Positions 5,972-61,381 are shown, counted from the stretch's first letter. The stretch is DNA of 64,000 nt from a virus (IMGVR_UViG_3300043219_000435); one strand, 5' to 3'. Notes: a model not told the origin generated them from the sequence alone. Numbers and translations are program-made.

Positions 5972-6318
5972 CCTTGATATGTTAAATTGTTATTAGGATA
6001 CAAAATCAGTCTACATTTTTCATCTAAAGACATATAATCTGCACCTATACATTTGAAATCTGCAAATGAAGACATATAATCTGTGCTTCTTTTAAAGATA
6101 GAAATGATATTAACTTGATACATCCATACGGTGGTGTTTTTGTATTTTACAATATATATTACATTTTCATCATGAATATCTCTTTCTATGTGGAATTCTT
6201 CAAAAACTAAAGTGAAGTCATCATTATATTTTGTAGCCACCTCTAATATAACATCATACAATTTTTGATGTAATGGAGATCTTATTCCAACTAAAGTATC
6301 GAGATGTTCTGGTGTCAT
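5959..6318 (-). CDS. LDTLV...GWEV family protein
   Basis: MTPEHLDTLVG...YQGWEI; the track ORF extends to 6330 (MGSE-) using an ATG that lies inside the upstream gene's GWE codons. Confidence 0.55.
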   Translation of the reverse strand: MTPEHLDTLVGIRSPLHQKLYDVILEVATKYNDDFTLVFEEFHIERDIHDENVIYIVKYKNTTVWMYQVNIISIFKRSTDYMSSFADFKCIGADYMSLDEKCRLILYPNNNLTYQGWEI

Positions 6319-6575
6319 TTCACTTCCCAACCTTCGTGTTCATCATGTTTTTTATACAATTTTGTTGTGCGGTCGAATACCTTACATAATATATCTTCTA
6401 AAGTATCAAATGCCTTAAACTCTATTACATATACTACACCAAAAGCATGTAAGGAAACCCAATGTTTTTTGTTATTTAAATATTCTATTACTTTAGTTTT
6501 AGCTACATGGAATTCATATAATATAAACGGATCTATATCAGGCACAACTAAAGTGTCCAGGTGTTCCGGTGTCAT
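6315..6575 (-). CDS. LDTLV...GWEV family protein
   Basis: MTPEHLDTLVVP...HEGWEVK; ATGA stop/start overlap with its neighbours. Confidence 0.55.
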   Translation of the reverse strand: MTPEHLDTLVVPDIDPFILYEFHVAKTKVIEYLNNKKHWVSLHAFGVVYVIEFKAFDTLEDILCKVFDRTTKLYKKHDEHEGWEVK

Positions 6576-6733
6576 TTTACTTCCCATCCATTTTCAATAG
6601 GTCTATAATTAGCTTTGTATTTGATATCTAAATAACGGTTATCAACCGTATAAAATCTACAGTATCTCCCTTCAATTATACAATAGCCATAATTATCAGG
6701 TACAACTAAAGTATCGAGGTGATCGGGTGTCAT
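6572..6733 (-). CDS. LDTLV...GWEV family protein (53 aa, absent from the ORF track)
   Basis: MTPDHLDTLVVPDNYGYCIIEG...ENGWEVK; fills the gap between its neighbours and has the same junction repeat. Confidence 0.5.
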   Translation of the reverse strand: MTPDHLDTLVVPDNYGYCIIEGRYCRFYTVDNRYLDIKYKANYRPIENGWEVK

Positions 6734-6963
6734 TTCACTTCCCATCCAGGATGTTGTATTTCTTCCCGATATTCTTGTACGTAGAACAGTTCTTTAAATT
6801 CTTGTACTGTCATATGGAATGTTTCCCAACCTTTATCATTCCCGAACCATACAGCAAAATAATGTGACCATGGTCCATAGCATGTAATAGTACCTCGATC
6901 CCATTGTTTTATATCAAGATCTGGATGATCTATTTTGCTTATAGCTGTTCCATAATCATTCAT
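6730..6963 (-). CDS. GWEV-C-terminus family protein
   Basis: ...HPGWEVK; sigma70-like TTGACT-N17-TATACT lies immediately upstream of the ATG (leaderless-like). Confidence 0.5.
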   Translation of the reverse strand: MNDYGTAISKIDHPDLDIKQWDRGTITCYGPWSHYFAVWFGNDKGWETFHMTVQEFKELFYVQEYREEIQHPGWEVK

Positions 6964-7034
6964 CTTTAAAGTATAATAAAAATATATAGACGAGTCAATA
7001 AAAAATATGTACTTTAGTTAAAAAGGATTAATAT

Positions 7035-7307
7035 ATGACTGGTGAACAGTTAGATGAATACCATAGAAAGCAGCAAGTTGCTATAGATTTTTGGAAGAAG
7101 CGAGGAGCTACTGACAAAGAGATATTGTGGTTTGAGCGTGGTGCGTGTACTGGAATGCATAATTATCGTAATATGTTATATGAGAATAAACAACAAGATA
7201 ATATTATGGTTGAGATGGAAGCTATGAAAGCAGCTAATAAAGTACGAGAACAGAATAATGAAGCTTTAAAGTATTCAGAAGAGTCATTTATGGATTTGAT
7301 AGAATAA
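7035..7307 (+). CDS. hypothetical protein
   Basis: GTCAATAAAAAATATGTACTTTAGTT promoter-like box followed by RBS AAAAGGA. Confidence 0.45.
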   Translation: MTGEQLDEYHRKQQVAIDFWKKRGATDKEILWFERGACTGMHNYRNMLYENKQQDNIMVEMEAMKAANKVREQNNEALKYSEESFMDLIE

Positions 7308-7312
7308 AAGGA

Positions 7313-7600
7313 TTGAGTATGAAGCAATTAATTGGTTGGGTGATAGGAATTGTTATGTTTTGTGTTGTTATGTTTGTTATGACTTGGTTTATAAACGACC
7401 AGATTGGGTCTGAAGCGCAAGAACGTAAGATTAGAAATCGTGATTACAAGTACCAGGTAACATGTACTGTTAATGGTAAAACTATAACCGAATATTTTTT
7501 GGATTGTTATTCTGGTCAAAGTGGTTTGCGATGTGGTAATAGTCGTGCTACTACATTTTTATGTCAGGGTAATTACAGTTACACAATAGTCCCAAAGTAG
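7313..7600 (+). CDS. membrane protein
   Basis: One N-terminal TM helix; RBS AAGGATTGAGT. Confidence 0.45.
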   Translation: MSMKQLIGWVIGIVMFCVVMFVMTWFINDQIGSEAQERKIRNRDYKYQVTCTVNGKTITEYFLDCYSGQSGLRCGNSRATTFLCQGNYSYTIVPK

Positions 7601-7608
7601 GAGTAAGT

Positions 7609-7818
7609 ATGAAGATAATAATTTTATTAAGTTTAATGGTTATGTCATGTAGTTATGATGTAAAATCGATTAAATGTTATTCTGATGATAAGGTAATATA
7701 CGAGAGTAATAATGTGTATAGTTTGATGTTAAATTCAAACAATCGATATACTATAATAGAGAAAGGTTCTAAAAAACATATAAATGTAAGTGGCAATTGT
7801 ATAGTGGAGCATTATTAA
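7609..7818 (+). CDS. small lipoprotein
   Basis: MKIIILLSLMVMSC lipobox. Confidence 0.45.
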   Translation: MKIIILLSLMVMSCSYDVKSIKCYSDDKVIYESNNVYSLMLNSNNRYTIIEKGSKKHINVSGNCIVEHY

Positions 7819-7819
7819 T

Positions 7820-8083
7820 ATGTCAAAAGATTTAAGGGATTTAAAGTCTTATACGATTGAGTTTGCATCGTGGAATAATGGTGACGATGATAATTTAAGT
7901 ACGAAGTTTATCACATATGATACAGAGGAAGAGGCTTTAGCTGTTTTGAAGCTGTGTCAGGACTGTGATAGTGTGAATGAAATCAGTAAAGAGTTGGATT
8001 TTTTAGAACATGAGAATCCAGATAATTTTTTAGTTGAGTTTTATATTCACCAACGTAAGCAATACATTTGGAAGAAGGAGTAA
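7820..8083 (+). CDS. SW.NDGD...ALA.LKLC family protein
   Basis: Paralog of 8335..8745 (FASWNNGDDDN...EEALAVLKLC). Confidence 0.45.
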   Translation: MSKDLRDLKSYTIEFASWNNGDDDNLSTKFITYDTEEEALAVLKLCQDCDSVNEISKELDFLEHENPDNFLVEFYIHQRKQYIWKKE

Positions 8084-8307
8084 ATATGTCAGAAGTAGAA
8101 GTAGTAAACGTTTGGGTATCGATCTCAGGAGATTATTGTGCATTCCATGAGATGGGTTTTTCAGTAGTATATGACATAACAAATGATATTCAGTTTGATG
8201 ATATGACATTAAAGGAATTGAAAGCTTTCAAAAATGATGGTGATTACTGTGATTATGAGAAGCGTAAAGCATTGAAAGATGGTAAGAATTATTATGTCAA
8301 ATGGTAG
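8068..8307 (+). CDS. hypothetical protein (weakly related GDYC motif)
   Basis: ORF with RBS AGGAGTAAAT. Confidence 0.4.
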   Translation: MEEGVNMSEVEVVNVWVSISGDYCAFHEMGFSVVYDITNDIQFDDMTLKELKAFKNDGDYCDYEKRKALKDGKNYYVKW

Positions 8308-8334
8308 AAGCAACTAAAGTAAAAAGGAATAAAT

Positions 8335-8745
8335 ATGGCAAAGAAATTAATAGCTAACAAAGGTTATACAGTTGAAGTTGAATCCTGGGAAAATGATGGT
8401 GATTATCGTGCAACTGAAACCATTGTCTATGAAAACAAGGAAAAGGCTTTAGCATTACTTAAGTTGTGCAAAAAATTGTTTTCTGATGGGGACGGTGGTA
8501 TTGGTAATGGTATGGGTGGATCTGAAGAGAAGATTAAAGCGTATGCAAAAAAGAACCGCAAGGTTATATCTACACTTTTTGGTGAAGATATTGATATTGA
8601 TAACGGGGATCATATTGTAGACTCCATTCGTGATTTAAAAGGTGATATAATGGGTTATACTGAAATATATGACTCAAGAGTATTTGAGAGTGGAACTGTA
8701 TATTATTCACCTGAAGATGTATATTTAGAAGTGATAAAAAAGTAA
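8335..8745 (+). CDS. SW.NDGD...ALA.LKLC family protein
   Basis: VESWENDGDYRATE...EKALALLKLC; RBS AAAGGAATAAAT. Confidence 0.45.
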   Translation: MAKKLIANKGYTVEVESWENDGDYRATETIVYENKEKALALLKLCKKLFSDGDGGIGNGMGGSEEKIKAYAKKNRKVISTLFGEDIDIDNGDHIVDSIRDLKGDIMGYTEIYDSRVFESGTVYYSPEDVYLEVIKK

Positions 8746-8752
8746 CTAAAGT

Positions 8753-8944
8753 ATGAGCGATTGTATTTGTCATAAATGTATAAAAGAGAATAATTTAACG
8801 AATGAAGCTGGTTGGCCGTTAAGTTCTTGTGTAATGATAGTGTGTGACATATGTGGCAATAAACGCTGTCCAAAGGCTTCTGACCATGCTTTAGCTTGTA
8901 CTAATAGCAATGCACCAGGACAGCCAGGAAGTATCTACAGGTAA
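8753..8944 (+). CDS. Cys-rich small protein
   Basis: CICHKC...CDICGNKRCP. Confidence 0.4.
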   Translation: MSDCICHKCIKENNLTNEAGWPLSSCVMIVCDICGNKRCPKASDHALACTNSNAPGQPGSIYR

Positions 8945-8947
8945 CGT

Positions 8948-9145
8948 ATGGATGTAAAATTTAAAGATTTAGAGAATGGTGATATGTTTGAATGTTATGG
9001 TGATATTTTCATTAACTATAATTATTCAAAGATCTGCAGGTGTATTAAGATAGATGAGGATACCGCTCAGGAGATAGATGGTTGTAATTTTCTGGTGGAT
9101 CATAGTGATTATGTATATAAGGTGGATTCAAATGAAAGAATATAA
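8948..9145 (+). CDS. hypothetical protein
   Basis: ORF coupled to the upstream gene. Confidence 0.35.
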   Translation: MDVKFKDLENGDMFECYGDIFINYNYSKICRCIKIDEDTAQEIDGCNFLVDHSDYVYKVDSNERI

Positions 9146-9572
9146 AGTTTTTATGGATTCGAGCATTAAGATTTATACTAAAGAAGAGAATCCTGATATG
9201 ACCTATTATGGGTTTTTAGATTTCTTATATAATGAAGGTTGTAAAAAACCATATTATAGAACTAAAGATACTCAGTTTTATAATTCGATGTATGGTCCAT
9301 ATCATAATTGTTTACGTTTGATGAGATCTAGATATAACCAATCTGGATTTTATCCTGGATGGGACATCCGTGAAGATCGTAGAAAGTTACGTAGGTTGTT
9401 CTTCTATAAATTGGAAGAAGAGGTACAGGCAGCTTTAAATCCGTTAAAATTGGATGATACAATGACGTGGGCAGCTTTAAGTTTGGATCAAGGTGGTTAT
9501 ACATCAATTGATGTTGAATACACTTCACAGACTCTATTTTCAACTGGTAAAGGTTGGGAAATAAATAGTTGA
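9132..9572 (+). CDS. hypothetical protein with a GWEI-type C-terminus
   Basis: MKEYKVF... start with RBS AAGGTGGA; ends ..GKGWEINS. Confidence 0.4.
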   Translation: MKEYKVFMDSSIKIYTKEENPDMTYYGFLDFLYNEGCKKPYYRTKDTQFYNSMYGPYHNCLRLMRSRYNQSGFYPGWDIREDRRKLRRLFFYKLEEEVQAALNPLKLDDTMTWAALSLDQGGYTSIDVEYTSQTLFSTGKGWEINS

Positions 9573-14875: not shown

Positions 14876-15051
14876 TATACACGTACATAGTAGATATGGA
14901 AATAGGTACAAATGGTGGTAGGGCTGTAAATAGTCTCGTAAAGATTCATCATTGTACCAACAACAAATATTATCGTGAGTCTCATGGTAAATTTGCCGGT
15001 GTATTAACTGAAGTATCTAAAGAAGAATTTGACAGTTGTAAACTAAAGTAA
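14860..15051 (+). CDS. hypothetical protein
   Basis: ORF ending in the AACTAAAGTAA motif. Confidence 0.35.
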   Translation: MQPQIVYTYIVDMEIGTNGGRAVNSLVKIHHCTNNKYYRESHGKFAGVLTEVSKEEFDSCKLK

Positions 15052-15237
15052 TATATTTAATCTGGAAGAATGAAGCTCACAGAAGGTACTAATGAAGCTC
15101 ATAATGTGGTACTGGCGAAATATAGTGGCTTATATTGGAACCGACCTCTACTTTAGTTTAGCCGATTAAAGGAATGTCTGAGAAACGGTTTGAGTTTTAC
15201 GAGTAAGTTCTTTCAGGTTTTTAAATAAGGAAAACAA

Positions 15238-19886: not shown

Positions 19887-19912
19887 GGAGCAATAATTTG
19901 CTCCTTTTTTTA
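19887..19912 (+). terminator. rho-independent terminator
   Basis: GGAGCAATAATTTGCTCC hairpin followed by TTTTTTT. Confidence 0.6.
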
Positions 19913-20476
19913 TACCAATTCCTGGCATTCAGGGCACTTTTTCTCATCAGTTCTTATATATTTTTTATCTACAAAATCAACTAACCATACATCATTTCCT
20001 GTTTTATAAAAGTTAATTCCATCTTCAAACATTGCTTTAGCATCAATCAATGTAACCGCAGCTTTACCTCTTCTTTCTGCAACGTCTACTGCAGTATTAA
20101 TGTTGTCAGATAAATGTACATGATGCCTGGACATCTTTTTAATGCCAGTATTTAATATTGAAGACAATGATTTTATTGGGGTTCCGTGGAATAAAACATC
20201 CGGTGGTTTTATAGCTTCCAACTGAAGTATAACTTTTATCGAATGTCCTTGTTGGGCTTTGATTTTCAATCCATCTTCACTTAATATGAAGCGTTTTTTG
20301 TCATTCTTAGCCACAACTTCTTCAATTATGTCCCTGGTCAAGTCATATTTAGTAGTTTTTTGAATAAGTTCGTCAACATATGCCCAACCATGTTCATCAA
20401 TATTTAAATTTATAGATTCTGGTTTATGTCTTAATATTAAGCTTAAATATTTGGAGATGTGTGTTAATTTTTTCAT
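19910..20476 (-). CDS. kptA: RNA 2'-phosphotransferase Tpt1/KptA
   Basis: ISKYLSLILRHKPE...HGW..VDEL...KKRF.....G..I.A.QGHS...HGT...RHHVHLS aligns with KptA over the full length. Confidence 0.85.
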   Translation of the reverse strand: MKKLTHISKYLSLILRHKPESINLNIDEHGWAYVDELIQKTTKYDLTRDIIEEVVAKNDKKRFILSEDGLKIKAQQGHSIKVILQLEAIKPPDVLFHGTPIKSLSSILNTGIKKMSRHHVHLSDNINTAVDVAERRGKAAVTLIDAKAMFEDGINFYKTGNDVWLVDFVDKKYIRTDEKKCPECQELV

Positions 20477-29521: not shown

Positions 29522-29786
29522 GTTTATTATGCTTCGTTTTTAATAAATCTGTAAAATTGAAAAAATCTTCATGAGCCTTCCGTATTTTTGCTTTAAGCTC
29601 AACCATAAATACATCATTGAAAAAATGAAATCCATCATGAAATTCAACAACTAAAGTAACTTTACCTTGAGCAATTTTAACATAAACGATTCCTGCAGGA
29701 AATTGCATTTTATCATCTACCTTTAATGAAAAGAAAGATTTAAAGGGATTACCCTGTAACGATATTTGTATGCCATCTATAATCAT
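29514..29786 (-). CDS. hypothetical protein
   Basis: ORF. Confidence 0.35.
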   Translation of the reverse strand: MIIDGIQISLQGNPFKSFFSLKVDDKMQFPAGIVYVKIAQGKVTLVVEFHDGFHFFNDVFMVELKAKIRKAHEDFFNFTDLLKTKHNKHA

Positions 29787-30277
29787 TTATTAAGTTGTCC
29801 TCCAACTAATCTATCATATGCTTTCATATATTTGATTAATCGTCTAGAAAACGATTCTTGAGAATCTATTGACCAATCACCAAATACACGTCTTGACACA
29901 TCCAAATTGTGACGAAGATCTTCTATCTTAACTTCCCTGGCAATATCATTCTGTGCAACTATTTCAACATATTCTTCATAAGAATGTTTTTCTTTATCAT
30001 GAGTTAACGCACTGACTGCAGCTACAATTTCATAACTAAAGTCATATGACAAATCTTCTATAGTAATTTCATTCTTTTTACCCTTAGTATCTTCAACCAC
30101 ATCATGTAAGACAGCAACGATTAAAAATCTTTCATCAAAATTTTTTTCTTTTAATTTATGCATTACATGCATTGGATGAAATATATAAGGTCTTCCACTT
30201 TTATCCATTTGTCCTGCATGACCTGTAACGGATATGATTATTGCTCTATCTATATCATTCATAATTATCCTTTTCAA
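29783..30277 (-). CDS. small alarmone hydrolase (RelA/SpoT-type HD (p)ppGpp hydrolase)
   Basis: VTGHAGQMDKSGRPYIFHPMHV...VAVLHDVVEDT, the HD-domain signature of SpoT/Mesh1. Confidence 0.7.
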   Translation of the reverse strand: MKRIIMNDIDRAIIISVTGHAGQMDKSGRPYIFHPMHVMHKLKEKNFDERFLIVAVLHDVVEDTKGKKNEITIEDLSYDFSYEIVAAVSALTHDKEKHSYEEYVEIVAQNDIAREVKIEDLRHNLDVSRRVFGDWSIDSQESFSRRLIKYMKAYDRLVGGQLNK

Positions 30278-30440: not shown

Positions 30441-30602
30441 TACGTTTCGTCAACTTTTTCTTTTGCATCTTCATATTCATCATGACATTTGAAACAACAA
30501 AAATTAAGTGTACCATTTGACAAACCATATTTAGTATAATTAAATTCTTTTTTACAAAAATCACATATTCTCAATCTTTCTTTTTGTTTTTCCCTGGGCA
30601 TT
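30441..30602 (-). CDS. small zinc-ribbon protein (53 aa, absent from the ORF track)
   Basis: MPREKQKERLRICDFCKKEF..CCFKCHDEY; its ATG overlaps the upstream stop (TAATG). Confidence 0.35.
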
Positions 30603-31041
30603 AATCAAACCCCCCACAATCACCACTGTCACAGCTAGATCCTGAGTCACATGATGAGCCTGAGTCATAGCTTGAAGAATCTGAATAACTATCACTCACA
30701 CAGCCACTCGCATCATCATAAGATGGTGATTCATCAGCATGTACATTAATGTTTGCTATAGTTTCATCTATCACATCACTTACATGATCCAACACAACTA
30801 AAGTATCATCTACCATATCTTCGACTTGTCTCAATGTGTTTTGCCTACGAATGTTTCTAACCAAATCATTTTCTTCATTACGATGATAATATGTATTTGT
30901 AGGACTAGCTGTTCTTCTCAGTTCTTCCATAGCCAGTTTCTTTTCCTCTTTCTCTTTTCTCTTGCGGTTATAAATTATAACAAAAGCAACTATTAAAGTA
31001 ACCAATACTACTGCTATTATAATTTCCATTTGCATTTCCAT
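30601..31041 (-). CDS. membrane protein with a Cys/Ser/Asp-rich tail
   Basis: N-terminal TM helix; C-terminal SSYDSGSSCDSGSSCDSGDCGG; RBS AGGAGTAAAA. Confidence 0.45.
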   Translation of the reverse strand: MEMQMEIIIAVVLVTLIVAFVIIYNRKRKEKEEKKLAMEELRRTASPTNTYYHRNEENDLVRNIRRQNTLRQVEDMVDDTLVVLDHVSDVIDETIANINVHADESPSYDDASGCVSDSYSDSSSYDSGSSCDSGSSCDSGDCGGFD

Positions 31042-31053: not shown

Positions 31054-31082
31054 AAAAAAAGGGGGCTTATTATTAAGCCCCC
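31054..31082 (-). terminator. rho-independent terminator (minus strand)
   Basis: GGGGGCTTA..TAAGCCCCC hairpin; T7 on the minus strand. Confidence 0.6.
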
Positions 31083-31121
31083 TACTAAAGTAAATACAAG
31101 TTATTAACTTGTCAATATAAT

Positions 31122-32867
31122 TTATGCATCAGATTCTGGTACATCTTTTTTTGGAGTAATACATTCTGTTAAACCATTAAGAGAATCAGCATTCATACCA
31201 AGCTCGTTCAATAGATTATTGATCATTGGCGCTTGTGCTTTATACTTAAGAGCAGCTTCTGCCATGCTATCAGCCATATTAGTAGACTGTGGAGCACCTT
31301 CAACTGAAGTTCCTGTAGAAGAGCCTATACCGTTCAAACCTTCATATTGAACGATTTTAATTGATTCGATTGCTTCTATTGGTTTAACACTTTGCTCAAT
31401 GATTTTTGGAAGATTCTCAATAGTTTTCATTTTGATTTTCATTTCGATTATCTCAGGAGACAGAGAATTTTCGGCATCAACCATTTCTTTCTTACCGGCA
31501 GCATCAACAGAGTATTCTTTTTCTTTTGTTTCAGCTTTCATCATATCAGCGTTCTTATTAGCCTCAGCAATGATTTCAATTGAGTCCGCTTTGTCTTTAG
31601 AAGCTTTCTTTTCAGCATCAGCAGCAATAGTAATAGATACCGCATCTTTTTCAGCTTCTTCTTTTGCTTTAATGATTTCGATTTCTTTGTTACGATTAGC
31701 TACTTCAGTTTCTTTAACAGTAGTAACGTTCTCTTCCGCTTTAACAGCTAAAGCTCTTGCATCTTCAGCTTCTGCTTTAGCTTCAGACTCTTCTTTTGAC
31801 TTCTCACTGATAGCAATAGCTTTATCTTGAGAAGCGATCTCAAGGGTTTTGTTCTTATTAATCTCTGCAGATTGAATAGCTTGATTCTTTGTAATCTCTG
31901 CAGATTGAATAGCCTGTTCAGATTTAATGCTTTGCTCTTTGATAGCTTTTTGATTCTGAATAGTTTCTTCTTGAATTGCTTGGTTTGTAGAGAGTTGAGC
32001 TAAATCAATACTTTGTTGAGCTTTGATCTCTGCTTCTTCAGCTTCTTGTCTTTTCTCAGCTCGTTGTTTAGCAGTACTGGTAGATTCCTCTTGAGTTTTG
32101 ATAGAGATTTCTCTTTGCTGTTCAAGACGTGCATATTCATTATCTTTCTTGATAGACAGAGATTCTTTTTCAGCTTCAAGATTTTTCTTTTGAATTGCAA
32201 TTTTAGTTGACTGTTCAATGTCATTTCTTGATTTGTTACGAGATTCAATTTCTTGAGTAAGTTTCAATAAGCCTTCAGCATCAAATGCATTGTTCGGATT
32301 AAAGAATTCTTTATTAGTTTGATCCAATGAAGTAAGTGAAACAGATTCAAGTTCCATACCATTCTTCAATAAATCTTCTGTTACTGCTCGTTGAACTTTT
32401 TGAACAAAATCCGTTCTTTTTTCATGTAAATGTTCCATTGACATTTCAGCAGCTACAGAACGAAGTGCATCAACAAATTTACCCTCAACCAAATCTTTCA
32501 ATTCATTGATGACCAATGTTTTACTACCAAGAGTTTGTGCAGCATCTGCAATCGATTCATTTGTTGGTTTTACACGAACATAAAATTCTGCAGTAACGTC
32601 TACTCTCATTCTATCACTTGTAATTAATGAGTCCTTACATTTTCTATTAACGACTAATCTGATAGTGTTCATGTTTACCATAATGATGTCATGAAGAACA
32701 GGAAGTACTAACGCACCACCATTCATGATAACTTTTTGACCACCTAAACCAGTTCTTACAAAAGATCTTTCTTTAGTTGATCTGGTATATAATTTTGAAA
32801 ATACGATTCCCATTGTAAGTAATGCGACCACTGGTATTGCTATGAATAATATTAAACTGATATCCAT
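31122..32867 (-). CDS. flotillin-like SPFH/band-7 protein
   Basis: N-terminal TM, SPFH core (GGQKVIMNGGALVLP..), long EA-rich coiled coil; YqiK/FloT-like. Confidence 0.75.
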   Translation of the reverse strand: MDISLILFIAIPVVALLTMGIVFSKLYTRSTKERSFVRTGLGGQKVIMNGGALVLPVLHDIIMVNMNTIRLVVNRKCKDSLITSDRMRVDVTAEFYVRVKPTNESIADAAQTLGSKTLVINELKDLVEGKFVDALRSVAAEMSMEHLHEKRTDFVQKVQRAVTEDLLKNGMELESVSLTSLDQTNKEFFNPNNAFDAEGLLKLTQEIESRNKSRNDIEQSTKIAIQKKNLEAEKESLSIKKDNEYARLEQQREISIKTQEESTSTAKQRAEKRQEAEEAEIKAQQSIDLAQLSTNQAIQEETIQNQKAIKEQSIKSEQAIQSAEITKNQAIQSAEINKNKTLEIASQDKAIAISEKSKEESEAKAEAEDARALAVKAEENVTTVKETEVANRNKEIEIIKAKEEAEKDAVSITIAADAEKKASKDKADSIEIIAEANKNADMMKAETKEKEYSVDAAGKKEMVDAENSLSPEIIEMKIKMKTIENLPKIIEQSVKPIEAIESIKIVQYEGLNGIGSSTGTSVEGAPQSTNMADSMAEAALKYKAQAPMINNLLNELGMNADSLNGLTECITPKKDVPESDA

Positions 32868-32876
32868 GATATCTCC

Positions 32877-33542
32877 CTATTGTTTTTTTAATAATTGATT
32901 ATTGTTTTTTATTGCTTTGAATATATGATTGTTTTTTTCTGTTAAAATTACTTCAGTTCCTTGCTTAAACTCAACATTCTCTTCATCAGGCTCAACCATT
33001 ATATGATGAGTAGTGCCATGATGATCTTGAAATTTTGCCGAAGCCGGATAATTCAACTTTGCTGTACCTAAAGTTATAATAGCAACTTCACCGATAAACG
33101 AATCTTCTGATATTGATTGAGATTCATCATCAGGAATAATTTTATTTAACATGTTTGCACATGTTTTTATTATCGGTACAGAAATTACTATAGCCAGGAT
33201 ACTTGCAATGAATGAAGGAAAAAACTGAAGTAATATGGATTTTGATATTATCTGTATTAAATATCCAGACAAACCAAAAGTTGTTAATGCGAGTATTAAC
33301 AAAATTAGTATTGGTACTTTACCAATACAGAACCAAGTTAATATTCTTGAAAAGAAATCCGGTGTATCAAAATTATCTGGCACATCAGTATCAATATCAA
33401 AATCTGGTAATATTGAATCCAAAAGATTAGAAAATCCGACACCAATTAATAAACCAAAACCTTCCATAAATGATATAGTAATCATTATTCCAATTGCTAC
33501 AGTAAATGGAAGATTCTCGTTTGCTAAAATTAAATCAATCAT
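32877..33542 (-). CDS. NfeD-like membrane protein (flotillin partner)
   Basis: Multi-TM N-terminus plus a C-terminal soluble beta-domain; lies immediately upstream of the flotillin, as in yqiJ-yqiK. Confidence 0.5.
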   Translation of the reverse strand: MIDLILANENLPFTVAIGIMITISFMEGFGLLIGVGFSNLLDSILPDFDIDTDVPDNFDTPDFFSRILTWFCIGKVPILILLILALTTFGLSGYLIQIISKSILLQFFPSFIASILAIVISVPIIKTCANMLNKIIPDDESQSISEDSFIGEVAIITLGTAKLNYPASAKFQDHHGTTHHIMVEPDEENVEFKQGTEVILTEKNNHIFKAIKNNNQLLKKQ

Positions 33543-34201
33543 TACAGATTCTGTTTAAATTTTTGTAAACGAACTTCAATTTTATTTTTTCTTCTTATCT
33601 CTTTAAGTTCCTCGATTTCACGATCTGCTTTCATATCAGTACTTGATTTTGTAAGATCTTTGCCAACAATATTTGTAACAACTCTTTCAAATGCTGCTTC
33701 AGCTTTTGAAATATTATCTTCAATATTATGTTCTTTATCTGTTTGTGAATCAACTAATACTTTAGTTTCTTTTAACAGTGTTAACTCATCTTTCATTTCT
33801 CTAATTTTACTTTCAAGAGCAAGGATGAAATTTTCAAGTTCAATTTTCTTGTTATTGTTTTCTTTTAAAGACGATTCGATGATAGGTAATTGAGTTTCAA
33901 TATCAATTTGTTGAGAAATTACAGATTCTGCATGTTCATCTTTACCTTCATCAACAGCAATTTTGATAAGTTCATTATAGTCGTTGATTTTATTTTCAGC
34001 TTCTATTTTTCTCTTTGATCCTAGATAAAGAGCTGCTTCAATTTTACCAAGTTCAGATTTGATCTCACTCATTGCATCCTGAATTTCTTTTATGGATTGC
34101 TCCATCATAACTTCAGGCATAGAACTTTCTACAATGTTTATTAATTTGTGTGTGCTACCACTAATAATTCTGGTAACTTTTGATGATATACTTTCTTTCA
34201 T
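33542..34201 (-). CDS. pspA: PspA/IM30-family protein
   Basis: N-terminus ..MPEVMMEQSIKEIQDAMSEIKSELGKIEAA aligns with the PspA helix 1-2 region; all coiled coil. Confidence 0.55.
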   Translation of the reverse strand: MKESISSKVTRIISGSTHKLINIVESSMPEVMMEQSIKEIQDAMSEIKSELGKIEAALYLGSKRKIEAENKINDYNELIKIAVDEGKDEHAESVISQQIDIETQLPIIESSLKENNNKKIELENFILALESKIREMKDELTLLKETKVLVDSQTDKEHNIEDNISKAEAAFERVVTNIVGKDLTKSSTDMKADREIEELKEIRRKNKIEVRLQKFKQNL

Positions 34202-34279
34202 TTATTGATCCTTTAATTAAAAGTATTAACTAAAGTAATTCAAATGTATATTGTTGTCAATAAAAAAAATGGATCTAAA

Positions 34280-34312
34280 TAAAAAGAAATCAGCCTTTGC
34301 GGGACTGATTTC
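34280..34312 (-). terminator. rho-independent terminator (minus strand)
   Basis: AAATCAGCC..GGGACTGATTT hairpin with an A-run on the plus side. Confidence 0.45.
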
Positions 34313-34367
34313 TCTTAACATTAAGGAGAAGTCTACTGTAATTGACCTCAATAATAATATACATTAT

Positions 34368-34739
34368 TCATTTTCGATTGTCAACAGCCCATCCTTCAAT
34401 ATCGATCAATTTACGTCTTCTTTCATTAAAGATAGCAATTTGATTATATCCAATTATAAACATTTCTCCTTTCAAGAAAGCAATTTCATTGCTGATATCA
34501 CCAACTATTTTAAAGTTATGTTTATTTCCATCATCAATTAATTTGCCATCACACAGCATTTCTTCTTGTATCATTAATAAAGTATCACCAAAATTAGCTA
34601 TATGCATGTTACTTTCACATTCTAATTCTTTACGCACTACACAAGAAATAGTTTTATAATATGTTTCGATGAAGTCTGTACATTCTTTACTAAGTTTCGG
34701 TCTAACTAAAGTATTAAGATGTTTCACTTTAGTTGGCAT
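34368..34739 (-). CDS. L.TLV...GW.V family protein
   Basis: MPTKVKHLNTLVRP...EGWAVDNRK. Confidence 0.45.
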   Translation of the reverse strand: MPTKVKHLNTLVRPKLSKECTDFIETYYKTISCVVRKELECESNMHIANFGDTLLMIQEEMLCDGKLIDDGNKHNFKIVGDISNEIAFLKGEMFIIGYNQIAIFNERRRKLIDIEGWAVDNRK

Positions 34740-34979
34740 TCATTGTCCGGTTAATAACGATGATATCCATTTAAGGAATAATACAAATGAAGCAAGAATA
34801 AGAAAGACCGTTGCAAAAAATAATACAACAGGCCATATTAATATACATATCATAATAAACGGACCTTCATCTTCTACCTCTATAGCATTTATTCTTCCAA
34901 GAATTCCATAGCCAATTATTCCAATTACAACACCGGCAATCCATATTTTAAAAAGATGTGTATCAATAAATTCTATCAC
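34740..34979 (-). CDS. small membrane protein (GTG start)
   Basis: Two TM helices. Confidence 0.35.
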   Translation of the reverse strand: MIEFIDTHLFKIWIAGVVIGIIGYGILGRINAIEVEDEGPFIMICILIWPVVLFFATVFLILASFVLFLKWISSLLTGQ

Positions 34980-35137
34980 TTTTGTTTATCCATTTCTTCC
35001 AGGTAAAGTTCTTTAGTGAAATCATTCACTCTCTGGCTGAAATTTTTTATGACACCATCGGAACTTCTACCAATACCTTCATGTGCCATGCTATAACATT
35101 TATTCCATACTTCTTGATCTCTTTCATTTTCCATTTA
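34979..35137 (-). CDS. hypothetical small protein (52 aa, absent from the ORF track)
   Basis: MENERDQEVWNKCYSMAHEG...; RBS GGAGTATATAA. Confidence 0.3.
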
Positions 35138-35196
35138 TATACTCCGGTTAATAACTGATATTAACTAAAGTACATATAAAATATTTACATGTCCAT

Positions 35197-35224
35197 AAAA
35201 AAAGCCAGATCTCTCGATCCGGCT
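35197..35224 (-). terminator. rho-independent terminator (minus strand)
   Basis: GCCAGATCTCTCGATCCGGC hairpin followed by T7 on the minus strand. Confidence 0.5.
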
Positions 35225-35291
35225 CAACAATAAATGCACAAGATAATTACCCTGGCTGTATTATAATAAGTAATAATACTTTAGTTGTCAT

Positions 35292-35633
35292 CTAGTTTTT
35301 ATATAATTCACACCATTTGTCAAATTTATAATCTCCAACAAGTCGTTTTATTTGATTGAACATAGTAAATCGTATCATAGTATCTTTTTTGTTAACGAAA
35401 TTCATAACAATATATTTAAAACCATCTTCCATATCACATATTTTTTTAGAATCTCTTAACAGAGAATCAATCAAAAGTTGTACATCTTGTTTTGGTGTAC
35501 TGTATTTTTCTAATAATTTATGGCGAAGCTTCCAGTAATTACGTTCGGATTCCATAGCACTAAATTTGATCTCAGGAGATAACTCTAAATCTACAGGATC
35601 ATTAAAATCTGATTTTGATATTTTACTGTTCAT
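35292..35633 (-). CDS. hypothetical protein
   Basis: ORF. Confidence 0.4.
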   Translation of the reverse strand: MNSKISKSDFNDPVDLELSPEIKFSAMESERNYWKLRHKLLEKYSTPKQDVQLLIDSLLRDSKKICDMEDGFKYIVMNFVNKKDTMIRFTMFNQIKRLVGDYKFDKWCELYKN

Positions 35634-35811
35634 TATATGGCTCCGTTAAATATGCTCGTATATCAGTTTTAATATCTTCATATTCTTCTGACAACGATGA
35701 AAAAGGTATAGGACTTATACTTTCATGGTGCTTTTTAAGAATAGCCATTACACTTCTAACAGCTTTTTCGTCCTCTTCTTTTAATAACTCATTTATTACG
35801 GAATTTTCCAT
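35623..35811 (-). CDS. hypothetical protein
   Basis: ORF. Confidence 0.35.
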   Translation of the reverse strand: MENSVINELLKEEDEKAVRSVMAILKKHHESISPIPFSSLSEEYEDIKTDIRAYLTEPYNEQ

Positions 35812-35861
35812 GTTATCTCACTTTAGTTTTTCAACTAAAGTAAATCAATTAACTAAGTTTG

Positions 35862-36275
35862 TCATCTGATATTTCCACTTAAAGTGCTTACTGCACCTTT
35901 AATATTTTTAGCTTTAACATTACCACTTGTTGTTTTAATATCTCCATCGACATCACCACATTCAATATCACCGCTCGTTGTTGATATGTTACCATGGACA
36001 TCACCCATAACTTCAACATCACCACTCGTTGTAGATAACTTTCCAACATCACCACGAACTTCAATTGATTCACAATAATCAACAGTAAGAGTTAATATCG
36101 ATTTTTCAATAACAATATTAATATTTTTATCGTCGGAATCTACTTTCTTACCATCAATGATAACAGTTCCATTCTTCATAGATAATGAATTGCCATGATA
36201 ACTTTTACCATTTATACTAATGGTTCCTTTATTGTTAATTATTTTTTCTTTTAATTTTTTAAAAAACATATTCAC
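35862..36275 (-). CDS. beta-helix repeat protein, DUF4097/LiaG-like (bactofilin-like is an alternative)
   Basis: Four 14-residue repeats ..STTSGD(V/I)E..GDV.G.I.. Confidence 0.45.
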   Translation of the reverse strand: MNMFFKKLKEKIINNKGTISINGKSYHGNSLSMKNGTVIIDGKKVDSDDKNINIVIEKSILTLTVDYCESIEVRGDVGKLSTTSGDVEVMGDVHGNISTTSGDIECGDVDGDIKTTSGNVKAKNIKGAVSTLSGNIR

Positions 36276-36341
36276 TCCTTTTAATAACTAAAGTAAATAG
36301 AAATTATTGACACGTCTACACATTTTGTATATACTTTCTAT

Positions 36342-41815: not shown

Positions 41816-42919
41816 TTAAGCCTTTATGTTTATTAATGGAATAACTCGATGTTTTACTTCAACCAATTCTTCCTGTTCTTTCATTACATGGAAAATATCT
41901 TTATATGCAAATGGTGATTCATCAATTGTTCCTTGAATAACTTTTGCTTTAATACCTACCATAGATTCTTTAAAATCATCTAATGATATATTTTCTTTTG
42001 CTTGTCTTCTGCTAAGAATTCTACCGGCACCATGGGAAGATGAATAAAGAGAATCTGGATTTCCTTTACCTTCAACAATAAAAGACCCATCTCTCATATT
42101 CCCAGGTATCACACCTTCCATACCTGCTTCAGCATGTGTTGCACCTTTTCTATGAATCCACAAACCATCTTTAAATGTTGCATGATTATGATTTCTATTA
42201 ATCAATGATCTGAAATTTGCACCACCTTCACAATAATGTTTAATCTCTCTTACAACTCTTTCAAGCATTATCTCTCTATTACGAAGAGCAAACTCAAGAC
42301 AGAAATTAAGATCCATTATATAATTTTCACCTTCAACTGAAGTAACTTCTAAAGAATAATTTCCTTCTCTTGCTTTATTAGAATTTGAAGCAAGTTTCAT
42401 ATAATGTGTAGCAGTTTTATGACCAAGATTTCTAGATCCTGAATGAATAATAATCCAGATATCATCATTCTCATCATATCCTATTTCGATAAAATGATTT
42501 CCACTTCCCAGGGAACCCAATTGTTTTAATCCATTAATATCAAAATTTTCTCGACATGTTTTTGTACATTCAATTGCTTCAGCTTCTTTCCATGTACTTG
42601 AATGATCATTACGATTCATTCCGGTAGGAATTGCTCTATAGATACCATTAAAAATCTTTTCAGTTTGATCTACAATATCGCTCTTTTTAAAAGTGGTTTT
42701 TAAGGCACCTACACCGCAGCCAATATCATAACCAACCCATGCAGGGACAATATGTCCATCAGTGGCTACAACGGCTCCTATGGGTATAGAATAGCCCAAA
42801 TGTGCATCAGGCATCAATGCGCCACGTACAACAAAATCACATTTCATTGCATCATAAAATTGATTCATTGTTTTTGGTTCTATGTATTCAGCAAATACTT
42901 TATGTGGTTTTAATTTCAT
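41816..42919 (-). CDS. rtcB: RNA-splicing ligase RtcB (3'-phosphate/5'-OH RNA ligase)
   Basis: Full-length RtcB fold signatures: ..GCG.. Cys, NRNHNHA, SSSHGAGR, IPGNMRDGSFIVEG. Confidence 0.85.
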   Translation of the reverse strand: MKLKPHKVFAEYIEPKTMNQFYDAMKCDFVVRGALMPDAHLGYSIPIGAVVATDGHIVPAWVGYDIGCGVGALKTTFKKSDIVDQTEKIFNGIYRAIPTGMNRNDHSSTWKEAEAIECTKTCRENFDINGLKQLGSLGSGNHFIEIGYDENDDIWIIIHSGSRNLGHKTATHYMKLASNSNKAREGNYSLEVTSVEGENYIMDLNFCLEFALRNREIMLERVVREIKHYCEGGANFRSLINRNHNHATFKDGLWIHRKGATHAEAGMEGVIPGNMRDGSFIVEGKGNPDSLYSSSHGAGRILSRRQAKENISLDDFKESMVGIKAKVIQGTIDESPFAYKDIFHVMKEQEELVEVKHRVIPLINIKA

Positions 42920-53406: not shown

Positions 53407-53615
53407 TAATTATTACACCATTTTATTTTCCAAGTTGGATCGAAGTTGATAGGATAGAAAAACCATCCATTTTGTATACCATATCCTTCACCTTTCATAT
53501 TTGGATCTGGAACAGCACATGATGAGTGACAATCACCTGGACAGGTGCGTCTATGTTCACAACTATAGCATTCATTCTGTATGGTTCTTGCATCACCTGC
53601 CATAATATTCCTCAA
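53388..53615 (-). CDS. Cys-rich small protein
   Basis: CYSCEHRRTCPGDCHSSC. Confidence 0.35.
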   Translation of the reverse strand: MRNIMAGDARTIQNECYSCEHRRTCPGDCHSSCAVPDPNMKGEGYGIQNGWFFYPINFDPTWKIKWCNNYKNKEA

Positions 53616-54528
53616 TCATATCAATCATTATTTTTTCAATATTATCTCTATCGGGTTCTTCTGGAAAATCTGATTTTTCATAAAGAACTTCAATATCAGC
53701 TTGAAGATCATTTGCCAACTGAAGTAAATCCTCATATTTCCATTTTCCAAATCTAATATCTTTCAATTGATCAGCATCAATTCCAGTACGATCAACAATA
53801 ACTTCACCGGTTTCAAATATTTCTTTAGATTGCTTTAGCAGCCTGATAACATGCATTGCATGTTTAGTATCATAACCTACTTTTAATTCCTGTTTAAGAC
53901 GGTCTACATTACGATTTTTCATGTGAGAGACATAATCATTGTATTCTTGTAATTGCTTCTGATAAAGCTTCTCTGCCTTTACTTGATCATGTATACCAGG
54001 ATTTAAATATTTTTCTGGAATTGATAATATTGCTTTTCCGTGAATTTCAAATTCATCTTTACGTACAGGCTTTACAACGTTCTTATCGAGCCAAGACTTG
54101 TGTCTCTTCAATCGATGCAATTGAGCTTGAGCATAACAAGTATAAGTATTTTTGATTCTTTTTGATATGAATTGATATCGGTTGTCATAGATTTCCATCC
54201 AGATAGAATCACAATAAGTCCAAAATTCAGGAGGTGCAAATAATATATCCAACATATTAGGATTGTTATTAAGCATTAACTTTAAAGCTTTTTGTAATGA
54301 ATAAATTACGTTGTCAGTATCTCGATCTTCGAATTGTTGATAGTCTTTGAACCCCAGGATATATTCTTTGGGAGGTATTGCAATACCTTTATAATCATGA
54401 TCTGATTCGTCACAAAAAGTACCGTATAATCGTGATCCAGTAAGTGTTTTGAAAATACAATTATTAGTTGCTATTTTCTTTTCGTTATCATAGTTTATTA
54501 CATCTTGTTCTGTTTTTAATTCTTTCAT
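53593..54528 (-). CDS. Pol-beta-superfamily nucleotidyltransferase
   Basis: N-terminal LTGSRLYGTFCDESDHDYKGI (hG[GS]..G....D.D minimal NTase motif) plus a helical C-terminal domain. Confidence 0.5.
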   Translation of the reverse strand: MKELKTEQDVINYDNEKKIATNNCIFKTLTGSRLYGTFCDESDHDYKGIAIPPKEYILGFKDYQQFEDRDTDNVIYSLQKALKLMLNNNPNMLDILFAPPEFWTYCDSIWMEIYDNRYQFISKRIKNTYTCYAQAQLHRLKRHKSWLDKNVVKPVRKDEFEIHGKAILSIPEKYLNPGIHDQVKAEKLYQKQLQEYNDYVSHMKNRNVDRLKQELKVGYDTKHAMHVIRLLKQSKEIFETGEVIVDRTGIDADQLKDIRFGKWKYEDLLQLANDLQADIEVLYEKSDFPEEPDRDNIEKIMIDMIEEYYGR

Positions 54529-60630: not shown

Positions 60631-60713
60631 AGTTTTGATAGGATTTGAACCTATAGTTACTTGGCGTTAACCAAGTAGCCGGTTTATGAGACCAGTGCGT
60701 TTACCAATTTCGC
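60631..60713 (-). ncRNA. tRNA-like element (canonical arm order, CAU anticodon loop, extra variable-arm hairpin, mismatched acceptor)
   Basis: D-arm GCG-AAATTGGTAAA-CGC, anticodon arm CTGGT-CTCATAA-ACCGG, hairpin ACTTGG..CCAAGT, T-arm ATAGG-TTCAAAT-CCTAT; the complementary 5' strand GGTTTTG lies about 35 nt upstream of the D-arm. Confidence 0.4.
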
Positions 60714-60855
60714 TACGATGTAATTGTACATTGCAGTACTGATTAATCAAAACCTGGACTGTAGTTATATAATAATGAAATTATAAAAATTAACTACAGC
60801 CAGGATTTTCAATCATATAAATGGGTAAAAGTCAAAATAAGCGTTTTCTCCCGTT

Positions 60856-60911
60856 GCTCTACCAACTGAGCTACTTGCCCCCGTTATGGGCAAAGATGGA
60901 TTTGAACCACC
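60856..60911 (-). ncRNA. circularly permuted tRNA-like module B (YrlA-type Y-RNA-like)
   Basis: Minus-sense T-arm GGTGG-TTCAAAT-CCATC, acceptor 3' TTTGCCC, loop ATAAC, acceptor 5' GGGCAAG, TA, D-arm GCTC-AGTTGGTA-GAGC; preceded by the GTGTTGCAG..AGATACTTCG box. Confidence 0.5.
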
Positions 60912-61005
60912 GACACACAGCTTTACATACGAAGTATCTTATTCCTGCAACACCATTTAAAACATAAAAAAATTATAGGAAAAAATCAATCAGAGAGAAT
61001 ATCGT

Positions 61006-61061
61006 GCTCTACCAACTGAGCTATTCCCCCATGTTACGGGGAAAGATGGACTCGAACCACC
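61006..61061 (-). ncRNA. circularly permuted tRNA-like module C
   Basis: T-arm GGTGG-TTCGAGT-CCATC, TTTCCCC, G TAACAT, GGGGGAA, TA, GCTC-AGTTGGTA-GAGC; same flanking box. Confidence 0.5.
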
Positions 61062-61218: not shown

Positions 61219-61275
61219 GCTCTACCAGACTGAGCTATCTCCCCACGTTACGGGGAAAGGTGGATTCGAACCACC
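61219..61275 (-). ncRNA. circularly permuted tRNA-like module D
   Basis: T-arm GGTGG-TTCGAAT-CCACC, TTTCCCC, G TAACGT, GGGGAGA, TA, GCTC-AGTCTGGTA-GAGC; same flanking box. Confidence 0.5.
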
Positions 61276-61381
61276 GACACACGGCTCCTAATGCGAAGTA
61301 ACTCTACACTGCAACACCATTTATTTAATATTTTAAAAATACAATAAAAAGAATGGTAAAAATCAATATAACAAATTTTTT

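Follow-up and report, generated by a model that had tools for sequence, protein, structure and literature searches.

A large uncultured tailed phage encodes its own PspA/IM30 protein, NfeD-like YqiJ protein, and flotillin as one consecutive module, a reading that is supported by the agreement of profile searches, operon anatomy, and gene order in bacterial operons. PspA and flotillin systems are usually studied as the means by which a host responds when its envelope is damaged, by phages among other causes. In this case, the effector half is carried by a phage, with the first gene trimmed off and the remainder adapted to phage composition. The module lies within a 64-kb stretch of DNA, called the window throughout, which has ~31% GC and is part of a contig that is ≥131 kb long. 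An original prediction had joined four open reading frames (ORFs) of the window in an envelope-stress module, and all four were present at the coordinates and on the strands listed in Table 1; three of the four calls were confirmed.

Table 1. Features of the phage module and its surroundings
Feature	Coordinates	Strand	Description
Intrinsic-terminator-like hairpin	31060..31083	-	10-bp stem with 6 G-C pairs, followed by a T7 run
yqiK-type flotillin gene	31122..32867	-	581 aa; Band_7 and Flot domains
yqiJ	32877..33542	-	221 aa; NfeD-like inner-membrane protein; 3 hydrophobic TM regions, then an OB fold at the C terminus
pspA	33542..34201	-	219 aa; PspA/IM30/Vipp1 (ESCRT-III-like); first gene of the phage operon
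Candidate sigma70-like promoter	34356..34384	-	TTGACA-17-TATATT; 11/12 match
Beta-solenoid protein gene, phrog_3163	35862..36275	-	137 aa; soluble, with an N-terminal helix; outside the trio module
HD_4 hydrolase gene	29783-30277		Putative counter-defense or RNA-repair gene of the accessory region

Family assignment of the three proteins

The predicted PspA/IM30 identity of the first protein was borne out by Pfam and by sequence similarity to structures in the PDB. PspA exceeded the curated gathering cutoff of the PspA_IM30 profile (PF04012; E value of 2.6e-10; score of 40.7 bits, cutoff of 33.9), and its residues 7 to 207 aligned to profile positions 4 to 205 of 220, a full-length match. The profile built for its subfamily (A2) matched PDB Vipp1/PspA chains from end to end with E values of 7e-10 to 4e-9, and in this alignment, profile positions 7 to 223 matched chain residues 5 to 214, across helices a0 to a5. 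The E. coli-type PspA equivalog TIGR02977 (20.3 bits against a cutoff of 242.95) and the LiaH equivalog NF045984 (14.4 bits against a cutoff of 380) were both rejected. The N terminus carries the conserved amphipathic-helix motif KVTRIISGS...PE, no TM-like segment was found in the protein, and 43 columns were invariant in an alignment of 14 sequences that included that of the window. Moreover, PspA matched no PHROG family at an E value of ≤0.01 and nothing in a tblastn search of 50,697 phage records, and thus, it differs from the published phage PspA-like genes and is clearly of a bacterial-type subfamily. We conclude that the window PspA, as judged from its sequence, is a distinct subfamily that is neither the PspA of the Psp regulon nor LiaH.

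The second and third proteins were likewise what had been predicted, namely, NfeD-like and flotillin/SPFH proteins. Membership in the YqiJ/NfeD-like group was defined by PF21001 together with PF07290, and both domains scored above their curated cutoffs (YqiJ_N, 3.3e-32 and 111.5 bits against a cutoff of 23; YqiJ_OB, 1.6e-25 and 89.3 bits against a cutoff of 25.4) in a protein with TM-like segments at about residues 11 to 37, 63 to 100, and 98 to 133. A YqiK-type flotillin was defined by PF01145 and PF15975 in combination with an N-terminal membrane anchor, and the phage protein matched Band_7 (7.9e-16 and 59 bits against a cutoff of 23.6) and Flot (4.7e-34 and 117.6 bits against a cutoff of 27). 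Its layout consists of the anchor, with a TM-like segment at residues 1 to 28, followed by the SPFH/Band_7 domain, a long coiled-coil region rich in Ala, Glu, and Lys, and the C-terminal Flot domain. More than 100 columns were invariant across 13 aligned flotillins, the window's included, and the protein was 52 to 63% identical to thousands of bacterial proteins that their sources name YqiK or flotillin. The FloT equivalog NF058507, which has a cutoff of 700, was rejected with 50.8 bits, and therefore, the phage flotillin is of the YqiK type and not a FloT orthologue.

Operon anatomy

The three genes are tightly packed, with translational coupling at one junction and 9 nt at the other. The pspA stop codon and the yqiJ start codon overlap in the sequence TAATG, and yqiJ ends at 32877 on the same strand on which the flotillin gene starts at 32867, in the yqiJ-then-yqiK order that had been predicted. 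The intervening 9-nt spacer is of identical length in the nearest bacterial locus (L004), and a GGGAG ribosome-binding site precedes the flotillin start. An NfeD-like 3-TM/OB gene also sits immediately upstream of flotillin in E. coli yqiJ-yqiK and B. subtilis yuaF-floT; neither of those operons is known to have an adjacent pspA. Downstream, a hairpin located 38 nt past the flotillin stop codon is a predicted strong intrinsic terminator that would delimit the trio on its 3′ side, and terminator-like sites numbered 8 in the window, compared to 1.9 ± 1.4 expected in shuffled sequences. Upstream, the candidate promoter lies ~155 nt before the pspA ATG and overlaps the stop codon of the preceding ORF. 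The claim that it was the cleanest sigma70-like promoter in the window did not hold, as it is one of ten sites matching at 11/12, a 12/12 site is located at 61863-61834, and the total of 11 sites matching at ≥11/12 does not exceed chance (7.4 ± 3.1 expected).

A bacterial operon in a phage genome

The association of PspA, band-7/flotillin, and YqiJ (YuaF) genes is known in bacteria (Ravi et al. 2024, mSystems, PMC11237479), and the neighborhoods described there have the same three families in the same PspA-YqiJ-flotillin order and with the same tight coupling. Consistent with that report, of 80 loci in bacterial genomes that hold this PspA subfamily, 77 had the three genes collinear, an arrangement spread over several bacterial phyla, and the window trio is collinear on one strand in the same order. 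The phage operon differs from its bacterial counterparts in its 5′ portion, however. An unannotated first gene of ~173 aa precedes pspA in 69 of the 80 bacterial loci, but a profile built from those upstream ORFs and run with --max had no match in the window (best E value of 9.6), and the window ORF upstream of pspA (34368-34739) is unrelated to the bacterial gene. Some bacterial versions are also described with an AAA+ ATPase or CesT/Tir-like gene (PMC11237479), whereas none was identified among the scanned ORFs flanking the phage trio.

The nearest relatives of the trio were metagenome-assembled genomes (MAGs) labeled Fibrobacterales, Reichenbachiella, Ignavibacteriaceae, and Melioribacteraceae. 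Compared to the genes of L004, the window PspA was 45% identical, YqiJ was 59% identical over its full length, and flotillin was 63% identical. GC3 was 0.17 to 0.21 in the trio, 0.16 to 0.24 in neighboring phage genes, and 0.22 to 0.28 in the L004 genes; the agreement between the trio and the surrounding phage genes indicates that the transfer was not recent, and the composition of the trio has drifted to fit the phage. We conclude that the phage apparently took up, in a single block, the effector genes of a bacterial operon that is widespread, and that the usual first gene was not included. Should the ~173-aa gene encode not a regulator but an obligatory chaperone, the trio may need a host copy of it.

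Phage context

The contig is rich in RNA-repair and tRNA genes. Within the window, PHROG matches included RtcB, NAD-dependent ligase, nucleotidyltransferase, a Ro-like protein, Tpt1, and Sir2, as well as several phage-only families, and three tRNA genes were present. The genes neighboring the trio had their top tblastn matches in uncultured phages of 634 to 735 kb, and an independent Logan assembly matched 14.5 kb around the trio at 100% identity. No virion or structural gene was found within the 64 kb, and thus, the phage assignment is based on accessory-gene content. The original prediction had suggested that the module could stabilize the host membrane or control the timing of lysis; no lysis gene was identified beside the trio.

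Whether related jumbo phages carry homologous modules was answered in part positively. The 469-kb Sinorhizobium phage Phosso and 14 IMG/VR contigs, seven of which are 380 to 543 kb, also had YqiJ-flotillin pairs, in which yqiJ neighbors the gene for a YqiK-type flotillin and the order is that of the window. The window's type of PspA was absent from these phage loci, however, and the full trio was found in no other phage; it was seen in a single lineage, represented by the window, by the Logan contig identical to it, and by a variant from another sample whose PspA is 96% identical. The flotillins of the very large phages are only 39 to 53% identical to that of the window, and most cluster together, whereas the nearest sequences of the window flotillin are bacterial MAG loci, with no other phage flotillin among the closest five. 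The modules of the very large phages and that of the window look like independent acquisitions. We note that, among comparative arguments, recurrence would speak most strongly for an adaptive role and that it is missing for PspA.

PspA homologues are nevertheless on record in other phages. Kuttervirus SeF3a gp125 (phrog_1203) is PspA-like and has been proposed to protect the membrane or the proton motive force (PMF) during infection (PMC9409062), and in Jug phages, a pspA-like gene next to terD is transcribed in vivo (PMC12880540). These cases resemble the window in that a phage-encoded PspA homologue is proposed to guard the membrane or PMF, but they have no YqiJ or flotillin partner, and the window PspA is of a different subfamily.

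Proposed role of the trio

The best experimental model of how the trio might work is pspA-ydjGHI of B. subtilis, in which the SPFH protein YdjI and the membrane proteins YdjG/H are needed to place PspA at the membrane (Scholz et al. 2021, PMC8581546). There, too, PspA is encoded alongside an SPFH protein as well as partners that are integral to the membrane, but YdjI is soluble and lacks the C-terminal domain of flotillins, and YqiJ is not related to YdjG/H, such that the likeness is one of functional analogy and not of orthology. On balance, we think it probable, with moderate confidence, that a large phage captured pspA-yqiJ-flotillin as a block and that the trio keeps the host inner membrane energized and intact. 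The trio would be expressed during infection from the phage's own promoter, outside host stress-sensing control. Flotillin, through its anchor, SPFH domain, and coiled coil, and YqiJ, through its TM segments and OB fold, would build a membrane-bound scaffold that recruits or positions PspA. PspA would bind stressed membrane via its N-terminal amphipathic helix and polymerize as an ESCRT-III-like coat to limit proton leakage, and the membrane would thereby stay energized and intact while the phage completes a long replication cycle, be it membrane proteins of the phage itself or suicide effectors of the host that cause the damage. Such biology is plausible rather than surprising, and all components belong to known families. 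The captured trio and the independent uptakes of YqiJ-flotillin together suggest that an intact host inner membrane is a recurring need of large phages.

Another explanation, which we consider rather unlikely, is that the trio is a counter-defense device that neutralizes abortive-infection effectors that depolarize or perforate the inner membrane (Rex-like, TM-effector CBASS, and similar systems), with PspA sealing the lesions while the phage finishes replication. The same hypothesis has been published for the SeF3a protein (PMC9409062), a CBASS cyclase of B. subtilis is held on host PspA (PMC11153139), which ties PspA to phage-defense biology, and the accessory region carries the putative counter-defense or RNA-repair genes for RtcB, Tpt1, the Ro-like protein, and the HD_4 hydrolase. 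PADLOC models matched none of the three proteins, but this shows only that they are not known defense components. Counter-defense is, moreover, a subcase of the membrane-maintenance explanation. Superinfection exclusion, in which a membrane scaffold would block DNA entry by later phages in a manner analogous to phage Ter/TelA roles, seems quite unlikely. XpaC-TelA lies directly beside YqiJ-flotillin, on its downstream side, in 10 IMG/VR contigs (five of them 435 to 480 kb) and in Phosso, and jumbo-phage Ter/TelA genes have been proposed to act against superinfecting phages (Iyer et al., PMC7824862), but no TelA, XpaC, or TerD homologue was found among the window ORFs, and the established activity of PspA is repair and PMF maintenance, not exclusion, which is an entirely inferential idea here.

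The trio could also be a neutral passenger, that is, host DNA that entered through illegitimate recombination and plays no part in the life cycle of the phage. Its restriction to one phage lineage and the finding of the window PspA in no other phage are in keeping with such an origin. Nonetheless, the three ORFs are intact and full length and retain the family-invariant residues, and the boundaries are trimmed exactly to three genes with their own terminator. Moreover, identity to the nearest bacteria is only 45 to 63% at phage-like GC3, which indicates that the genes were maintained through long divergence, and several lineages of very large phages took up YqiJ-flotillin independently; we regard a passenger as improbable. 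Very unlikely, in our estimation, is that the ESCRT-III-like PspA and the flotillin/NfeD scaffold remodel the host inner membrane rather than only patching it, for example, into an intracellular compartment or vesicle for the genome or assembly, or that the trio acts as a dedicated antidote to or decoy for membrane-targeting or PspA-tethered immunity such as CBASS. If true, either would be a bacterial-virus counterpart of the use of ESCRT and flotillin by eukaryotic viruses. With its small size, self-contained layout, and ease of synthesis, the trio offers a direct test of PspA recruitment by flotillin-YqiJ, and it also suits testing whether a regulator-free module protects against membrane-depolarizing defense systems.

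The beta-solenoid protein is not part of the module

The fourth protein of the original prediction was described as a beta-helix with a 14-residue repeat that resembles DUF4097 (LiaG/YvlB) and accompanies PspA. The beta-solenoid is real, but its period is ~16 residues (G-D-V-x-G-x-[IV]-x-T-T-S-G-D-[IV]-x-x) rather than 14, and the resemblance failed in profile searches, in which the protein matched no Pfam family at an E value of ≤1, DUF4097 (PF13349) included, and only 1 of 24 members of its family had a weak match to DUF4097 (4e-4). Membership in a common module also failed, as the gene is set apart from pspA by five ORFs, along with a terminator-like hairpin on the minus strand (35225-35202), and lies in another transcription unit. 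A four-part Lia-like module, with this protein as the LiaG/DUF4097 (Toastrack) partner of the phage PspA, is therefore highly improbable. No TM segment was found that could serve the protein as a membrane anchor, and its homologues occur in 181 GenBank phage records, whereas the same phage collection gave no tblastn match to the window PspA. We conclude that it is an unrelated and widespread phage protein that is transcribed separately from the trio.

A three-gene membrane operon in the phage window

All four open reading frames of the membrane module in the original prediction were found where proposed. Pfam searches placed three of them above curated cutoffs in the flotillin, NfeD-like and PspA/IM30 families, as predicted, but did not bear out the reading of the fourth as a DUF4097 protein. 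The NfeD-like protein is YqiJ, a combination of three transmembrane helices and an OB-fold that is the partner of flotillins in bacteria. A profile of the closest relatives of the window PspA (A2) matched solved Vipp1/PspA chains end to end (E ~1e-9), including the N-terminal amphipathic-helix region. Hydropathy analysis indicated an N-terminal anchor in the flotillin and three hydrophobic regions in YqiJ but none in PspA, and alignments with relatives showed that the family-invariant residues were all retained in the trio. NCBIfam equivalog models of E. coli PspA, LiaH and FloT scored the trio far under their cutoffs, and thus its proteins are YqiK-type and non-canonical PspA subfamily members rather than textbook orthologues. 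PADLOC gave no meaningful match for any protein of the set.

The yqiJ start codon overlaps the pspA stop codon (TAATG), the flotillin gene follows after 9 nt with a GGGAG motif preceding its start, and a terminator-like hairpin lies beyond its stop codon. In the 155 nt leading up to pspA, Rfam recognized no RNA element. The pspA gene had also been credited with the cleanest sigma70-like promoter in the window, but a scan of the whole window found ten sites that scored 11/12 and one that scored 12/12, at 61863-61834. Moreover, the 11 sites at or above 11/12 were not in excess of the 7.4 +/- 3.1 expected from a first-order Markov control, and the promoter argument was dropped. We note that the window contains seven nearly identical strings of the form TTGACA-N17/18-TATA[TC]T (176-148, 15029-15057, 27976-27947, 34384-34356, 36307-36335, 38782-38754 and 43704-43676), at least four of them intergenic and just 5' of open reading frames; these could be phage early promoters, the count of sites at or above 11/12 being not significant.

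Features of the trio, its surroundings and related loci
Feature	Locus	Coordinates	Strand	Remarks
Flotillin	window	31122-32867	-	Pfam Flot 4.7e-34, Band_7/SPFH 7.9e-16
YqiJ, NfeD-like	window	32877-33542	-	Pfam YqiJ_N 3.3e-32, YqiJ_OB 1.6e-25
PspA	window	33542-34201	-	Pfam PspA_IM30 2.6e-10, 40.7 bits against cutoff of 33.9, whole length
Terminator-like hairpin	window	31083-31060	-	10-bp, GC-rich, then T-run; 38 nt past flotillin stop
Candidate promoter string	window	34384-34356	-	TTGACA-17-TATATT; ~155 nt 5' of pspA ATG
HD_4 protein (RelA/SpoT-type hydrolase domain)	window	29783-30277	-	164 aa; phrog_990, 3.8e-43
146-aa protein	window	30601-31041	-	directly past trio terminator
Beta-solenoid protein	window	35862-36275	-	phrog_3163, 3.7e-44
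Terminator-like hairpin	window	35225-35202	-	between pspA and beta-solenoid gene
RNA 2'-phosphotransferase Tpt1/KptA	window	19910-20476
RtcB ligase	window	41816-42919		same window as extra tRNA-like sites
Nucleotidyltransferase	window	53593-54528		phrog_388; possibly tRNA CCA-adding type
Ro-like RNA-binding protein	window	61835-63517
Upstream gene of bacterial operon	L004 (nearest bacterial locus)	8116-8637		directly 5' of pspA
Upstream gene of bacterial operon	L005 (bacterial locus)	1240-1761		directly 5' of pspA
YqiJ-flotillin-XpaC-TelA block	L001 (Phosso)	4691-9473
YqiJ-flotillin-XpaC-TelA block	L010-L013, L016-L020 (IMG/VR)	~2700-8700

The bacterial operon and the gene absent from the phage

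In bacteria, an association of PspA, band-7/flotillin and YqiJ genes is already on record (Ravi et al. 2024, PMC11237479). Bacterial YqiK proteins with 52 to 63% identity to the window flotillin numbered in the thousands, and the two best flotillin matches lie in ordinary cellular contexts, among glycoside hydrolase, beta-lactamase and Fib_succ_major proteins. At both loci the gene order was a 173-aa open reading frame, PspA, YqiJ and flotillin, and identity of the window proteins to their bacterial counterparts was 45% for PspA, 59% for YqiJ and 63% for the flotillin. The 9-nt spacer between yqiJ and the flotillin gene was also present in the nearest bacterial locus. A PspA-alignment scan of GTDB, with one genome for each species, returned 455 relatives; among the best 80, PspA, YqiJ and flotillin were collinear in 77 loci and the ~173-aa upstream gene was also present in 69. 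Nearest relatives of the trio were metagenome-assembled genomes labelled Fibrobacterales, Reichenbachiella, Ignavibacteriaceae, Melioribacteraceae and Bacteroidetes, with 32 to 42% GC, taxa that point to a likely host in Fibrobacterota, Ignavibacteriota or Bacteroidota.

The upstream gene lies directly 5' of pspA in L004, L005 and 67 further genome loci (L021-L100), and its profile had no match in the whole window (best E, 9.6). Nor did the open reading frames flanking the trio resemble those flanking the bacterial operon, which indicates that only three genes were transferred and that the phage has exactly three of the four operon genes. The upstream protein is conserved, with the N-terminal consensus K.V..SVR.S.EDAEFI..L...GA.TPSDKLRAII..AR, and had no match in Pfam and PDB sequence searches; it could not be equated with the CesT/Tir-like partner described by Ravi et al. 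(PMC11237479). The consensus looks like a ribbon-helix-helix DNA-binding motif, and the gene may encode a regulator of the bacterial operon. If the protein is of the ribbon-helix-helix type, the phage would have left the regulator of the operon behind. We conclude that the window carries, in a phage accessory region, the conserved PspA-YqiJ-flotillin operon of bacteria in compact and intact form but without its first gene.

Phage context and age of the acquisition

No virion gene was found within the 64-kb window, and thus the phage assignment rests on gene content. GC is ~31%, and short open reading frames are densely packed, most of them without a Pfam match. PHROG families included RtcB, NAD-dependent DNA ligase, nucleotidyltransferase, Ro-like RNA-binding protein, RNA 2'-phosphotransferase and Sir2, as well as several phage-only families without assigned function, and three tRNA genes were present. 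Uncultured phages of 634 to 735 kb gave the best tblastn matches of the genes neighboring the trio; among 50,697 phage records, megablast found none that matched the 5.9-kb region. An identical flotillin was present on a JGI contig of 131,247 bp, and an independent Logan assembly reproduced 14.5 kb around the trio at 100% identity, such that the junctions of the trio are not an assembly artefact.

The GC3 of the trio (0.17 to 0.21) fit the neighboring phage genes (0.16 to 0.24) and not the bacterial copies (0.22 to 0.28). Moreover, a PspA variant 96% identical to that of the window was found in another sample. From the GC3 match, the retained invariant residues and the variant, we infer that the trio is an old, maintained acquisition.

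YqiJ-flotillin and PspA in other phages

Among the 50,697 phage records, tblastn with the window flotillin gave a single full-length match, in Sinorhizobium phage Phosso (469 kb; 39% identity), where the gene order is YqiJ, flotillin, XpaC (Halogen_Hydrol) and TelA. A flotillin-alignment scan of IMG/VR returned 14 contigs, seven of them of 380 to 543 kb. YqiJ was directly upstream of flotillin in all 13 with upstream sequence available, and XpaC-TelA was directly downstream in ten (44 to 480 kb, five of them 435 to 480 kb). The block shared by Phosso and these ten contigs begins with a 174-aa protein without assigned function; two genes intervene between the 174-aa gene and yqiJ in L013, one for a receiver-domain and one for a DUF4326 protein. 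It seems that very large phages repeatedly carry this block as a membrane module, which differs from the module of the window; TelA, XpaC and TerD were all absent from the window. In pairwise distances the window flotillin was nearest to the Fibrobacterales and Reichenbachiella loci, whereas most phage flotillins were nearest one another, which suggests that phages captured YqiJ-flotillin several times independently.

PspA of the window type was absent from all 14 flotillin contigs. Likewise, window PspA had no tblastn match in GenBank phages, a pattern scan with its alignment gave no locus in IMG/VR, and a pattern scan of JGI metagenome contigs gave none above 42% identity among the matches listed. 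A PspA-like gene for which an anti-Abi hypothesis was proposed is known from Kuttervirus (PMC9409062), and in Jug phages a transcribed PspA-like gene adjoins terD (PMC12880540), but both belong to other subfamilies than the window protein and are without flotillin partners. Among the collections searched, the complete trio was seen on phage only in the lineage of the window, with no second phage lineage found.

The beta-solenoid protein

The proposed fourth member proved to be a real repeat protein, but the period was ~16 residues (G-D-V-x-G-x-[IV]-x-T-T-S-G-D-[IV]-x-x) rather than 14, and the Lia/DUF4097 reading was not upheld, as Pfam gave nothing at E<=1. Among 24 homologues, Pfam indicated DUF4097 once, weakly, DUF2807 once, bactofilin and FapA three times each and DUF3060 four times. 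An AF2 model (pLDDT 85.8) showed a right-handed beta-solenoid and, at the N-terminus, a helix; Foldseek found nothing significant for the model in the PDB, and its BFVD matches were small proteins of phages and giant eukaryotic viruses. Five open reading frames and a terminator-like hairpin separate the gene from pspA, and homologues occurred in 181 phage records of a collection that had no match to window PspA. We conclude that the beta-solenoid is an independent phage protein and that, of the original prediction, the three-gene module stands but the fourth member and the promoter do not. We note that phrog_3163 also occurs in phages of many hosts and has relatives, by both structure and sequence, in the giant eukaryotic viruses Sylvanvirus, Fadolivirus and Klosneuvirus (24 to 30% identity; Foldseek E 4.5e-6 to 1.3e-3), an unusually broad viral spread for a protein of 110 to 160 aa.

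Proposed role of the trio

In B. subtilis, membrane localization of PspA requires the SPFH protein YdjI together with its membrane partners YdjG/H (PMC8581546). From that result and PspA/Vipp1 biology we infer that the trio would be expressed by the phage during infection, that a membrane-anchored flotillin-YqiJ scaffold would position PspA and that PspA would polymerize on the stressed membrane and preserve proton-motive force. Candidate threats countered in this way may be the membrane traffic of the phage itself, a host abortive-infection effector (anti-Abi) or competing phages. With the trio, a bacterial system known from earlier work is represented on a phage. None of the components is new, nor is the bacterial operon, and PspA-like genes and SPFH genes of phages had been noted separately; the three-gene find is solid and moderately interesting.

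Neighboring genes and tRNA-like sites

The 146-aa protein beyond the trio terminator combines an N-terminal transmembrane helix with a charged central part and, at the C-terminus, a tail rich in Ser, Asp and Cys (SSSYDSGSSCDSGSSCDSGDCGGFD), and is unrelated to the small open reading frame 3' of the bacterial operons. Its matches were weak: a YxzE-like bacteriocin (1.4e-5, below cutoff) and an Rz-like spanin PHROG (E 0.004), the latter being the nearest indication of any lysis gene and too weak to sustain the idea that the module controls lysis timing. The HD_4 protein is encoded two genes downstream of the trio and may be a small alarmone hydrolase.

The Rfam tRNA model indicated three further sites without an ARAGORN call, at 60637-60716, 60887-61030 and 61251-61406, all on the minus strand. 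Two of them matched the model in full (1-71) but extended across 144 and 156 nt; insertions of ~70 to 85 nt are thus implied, and these two are possibly intron-containing tRNA genes.
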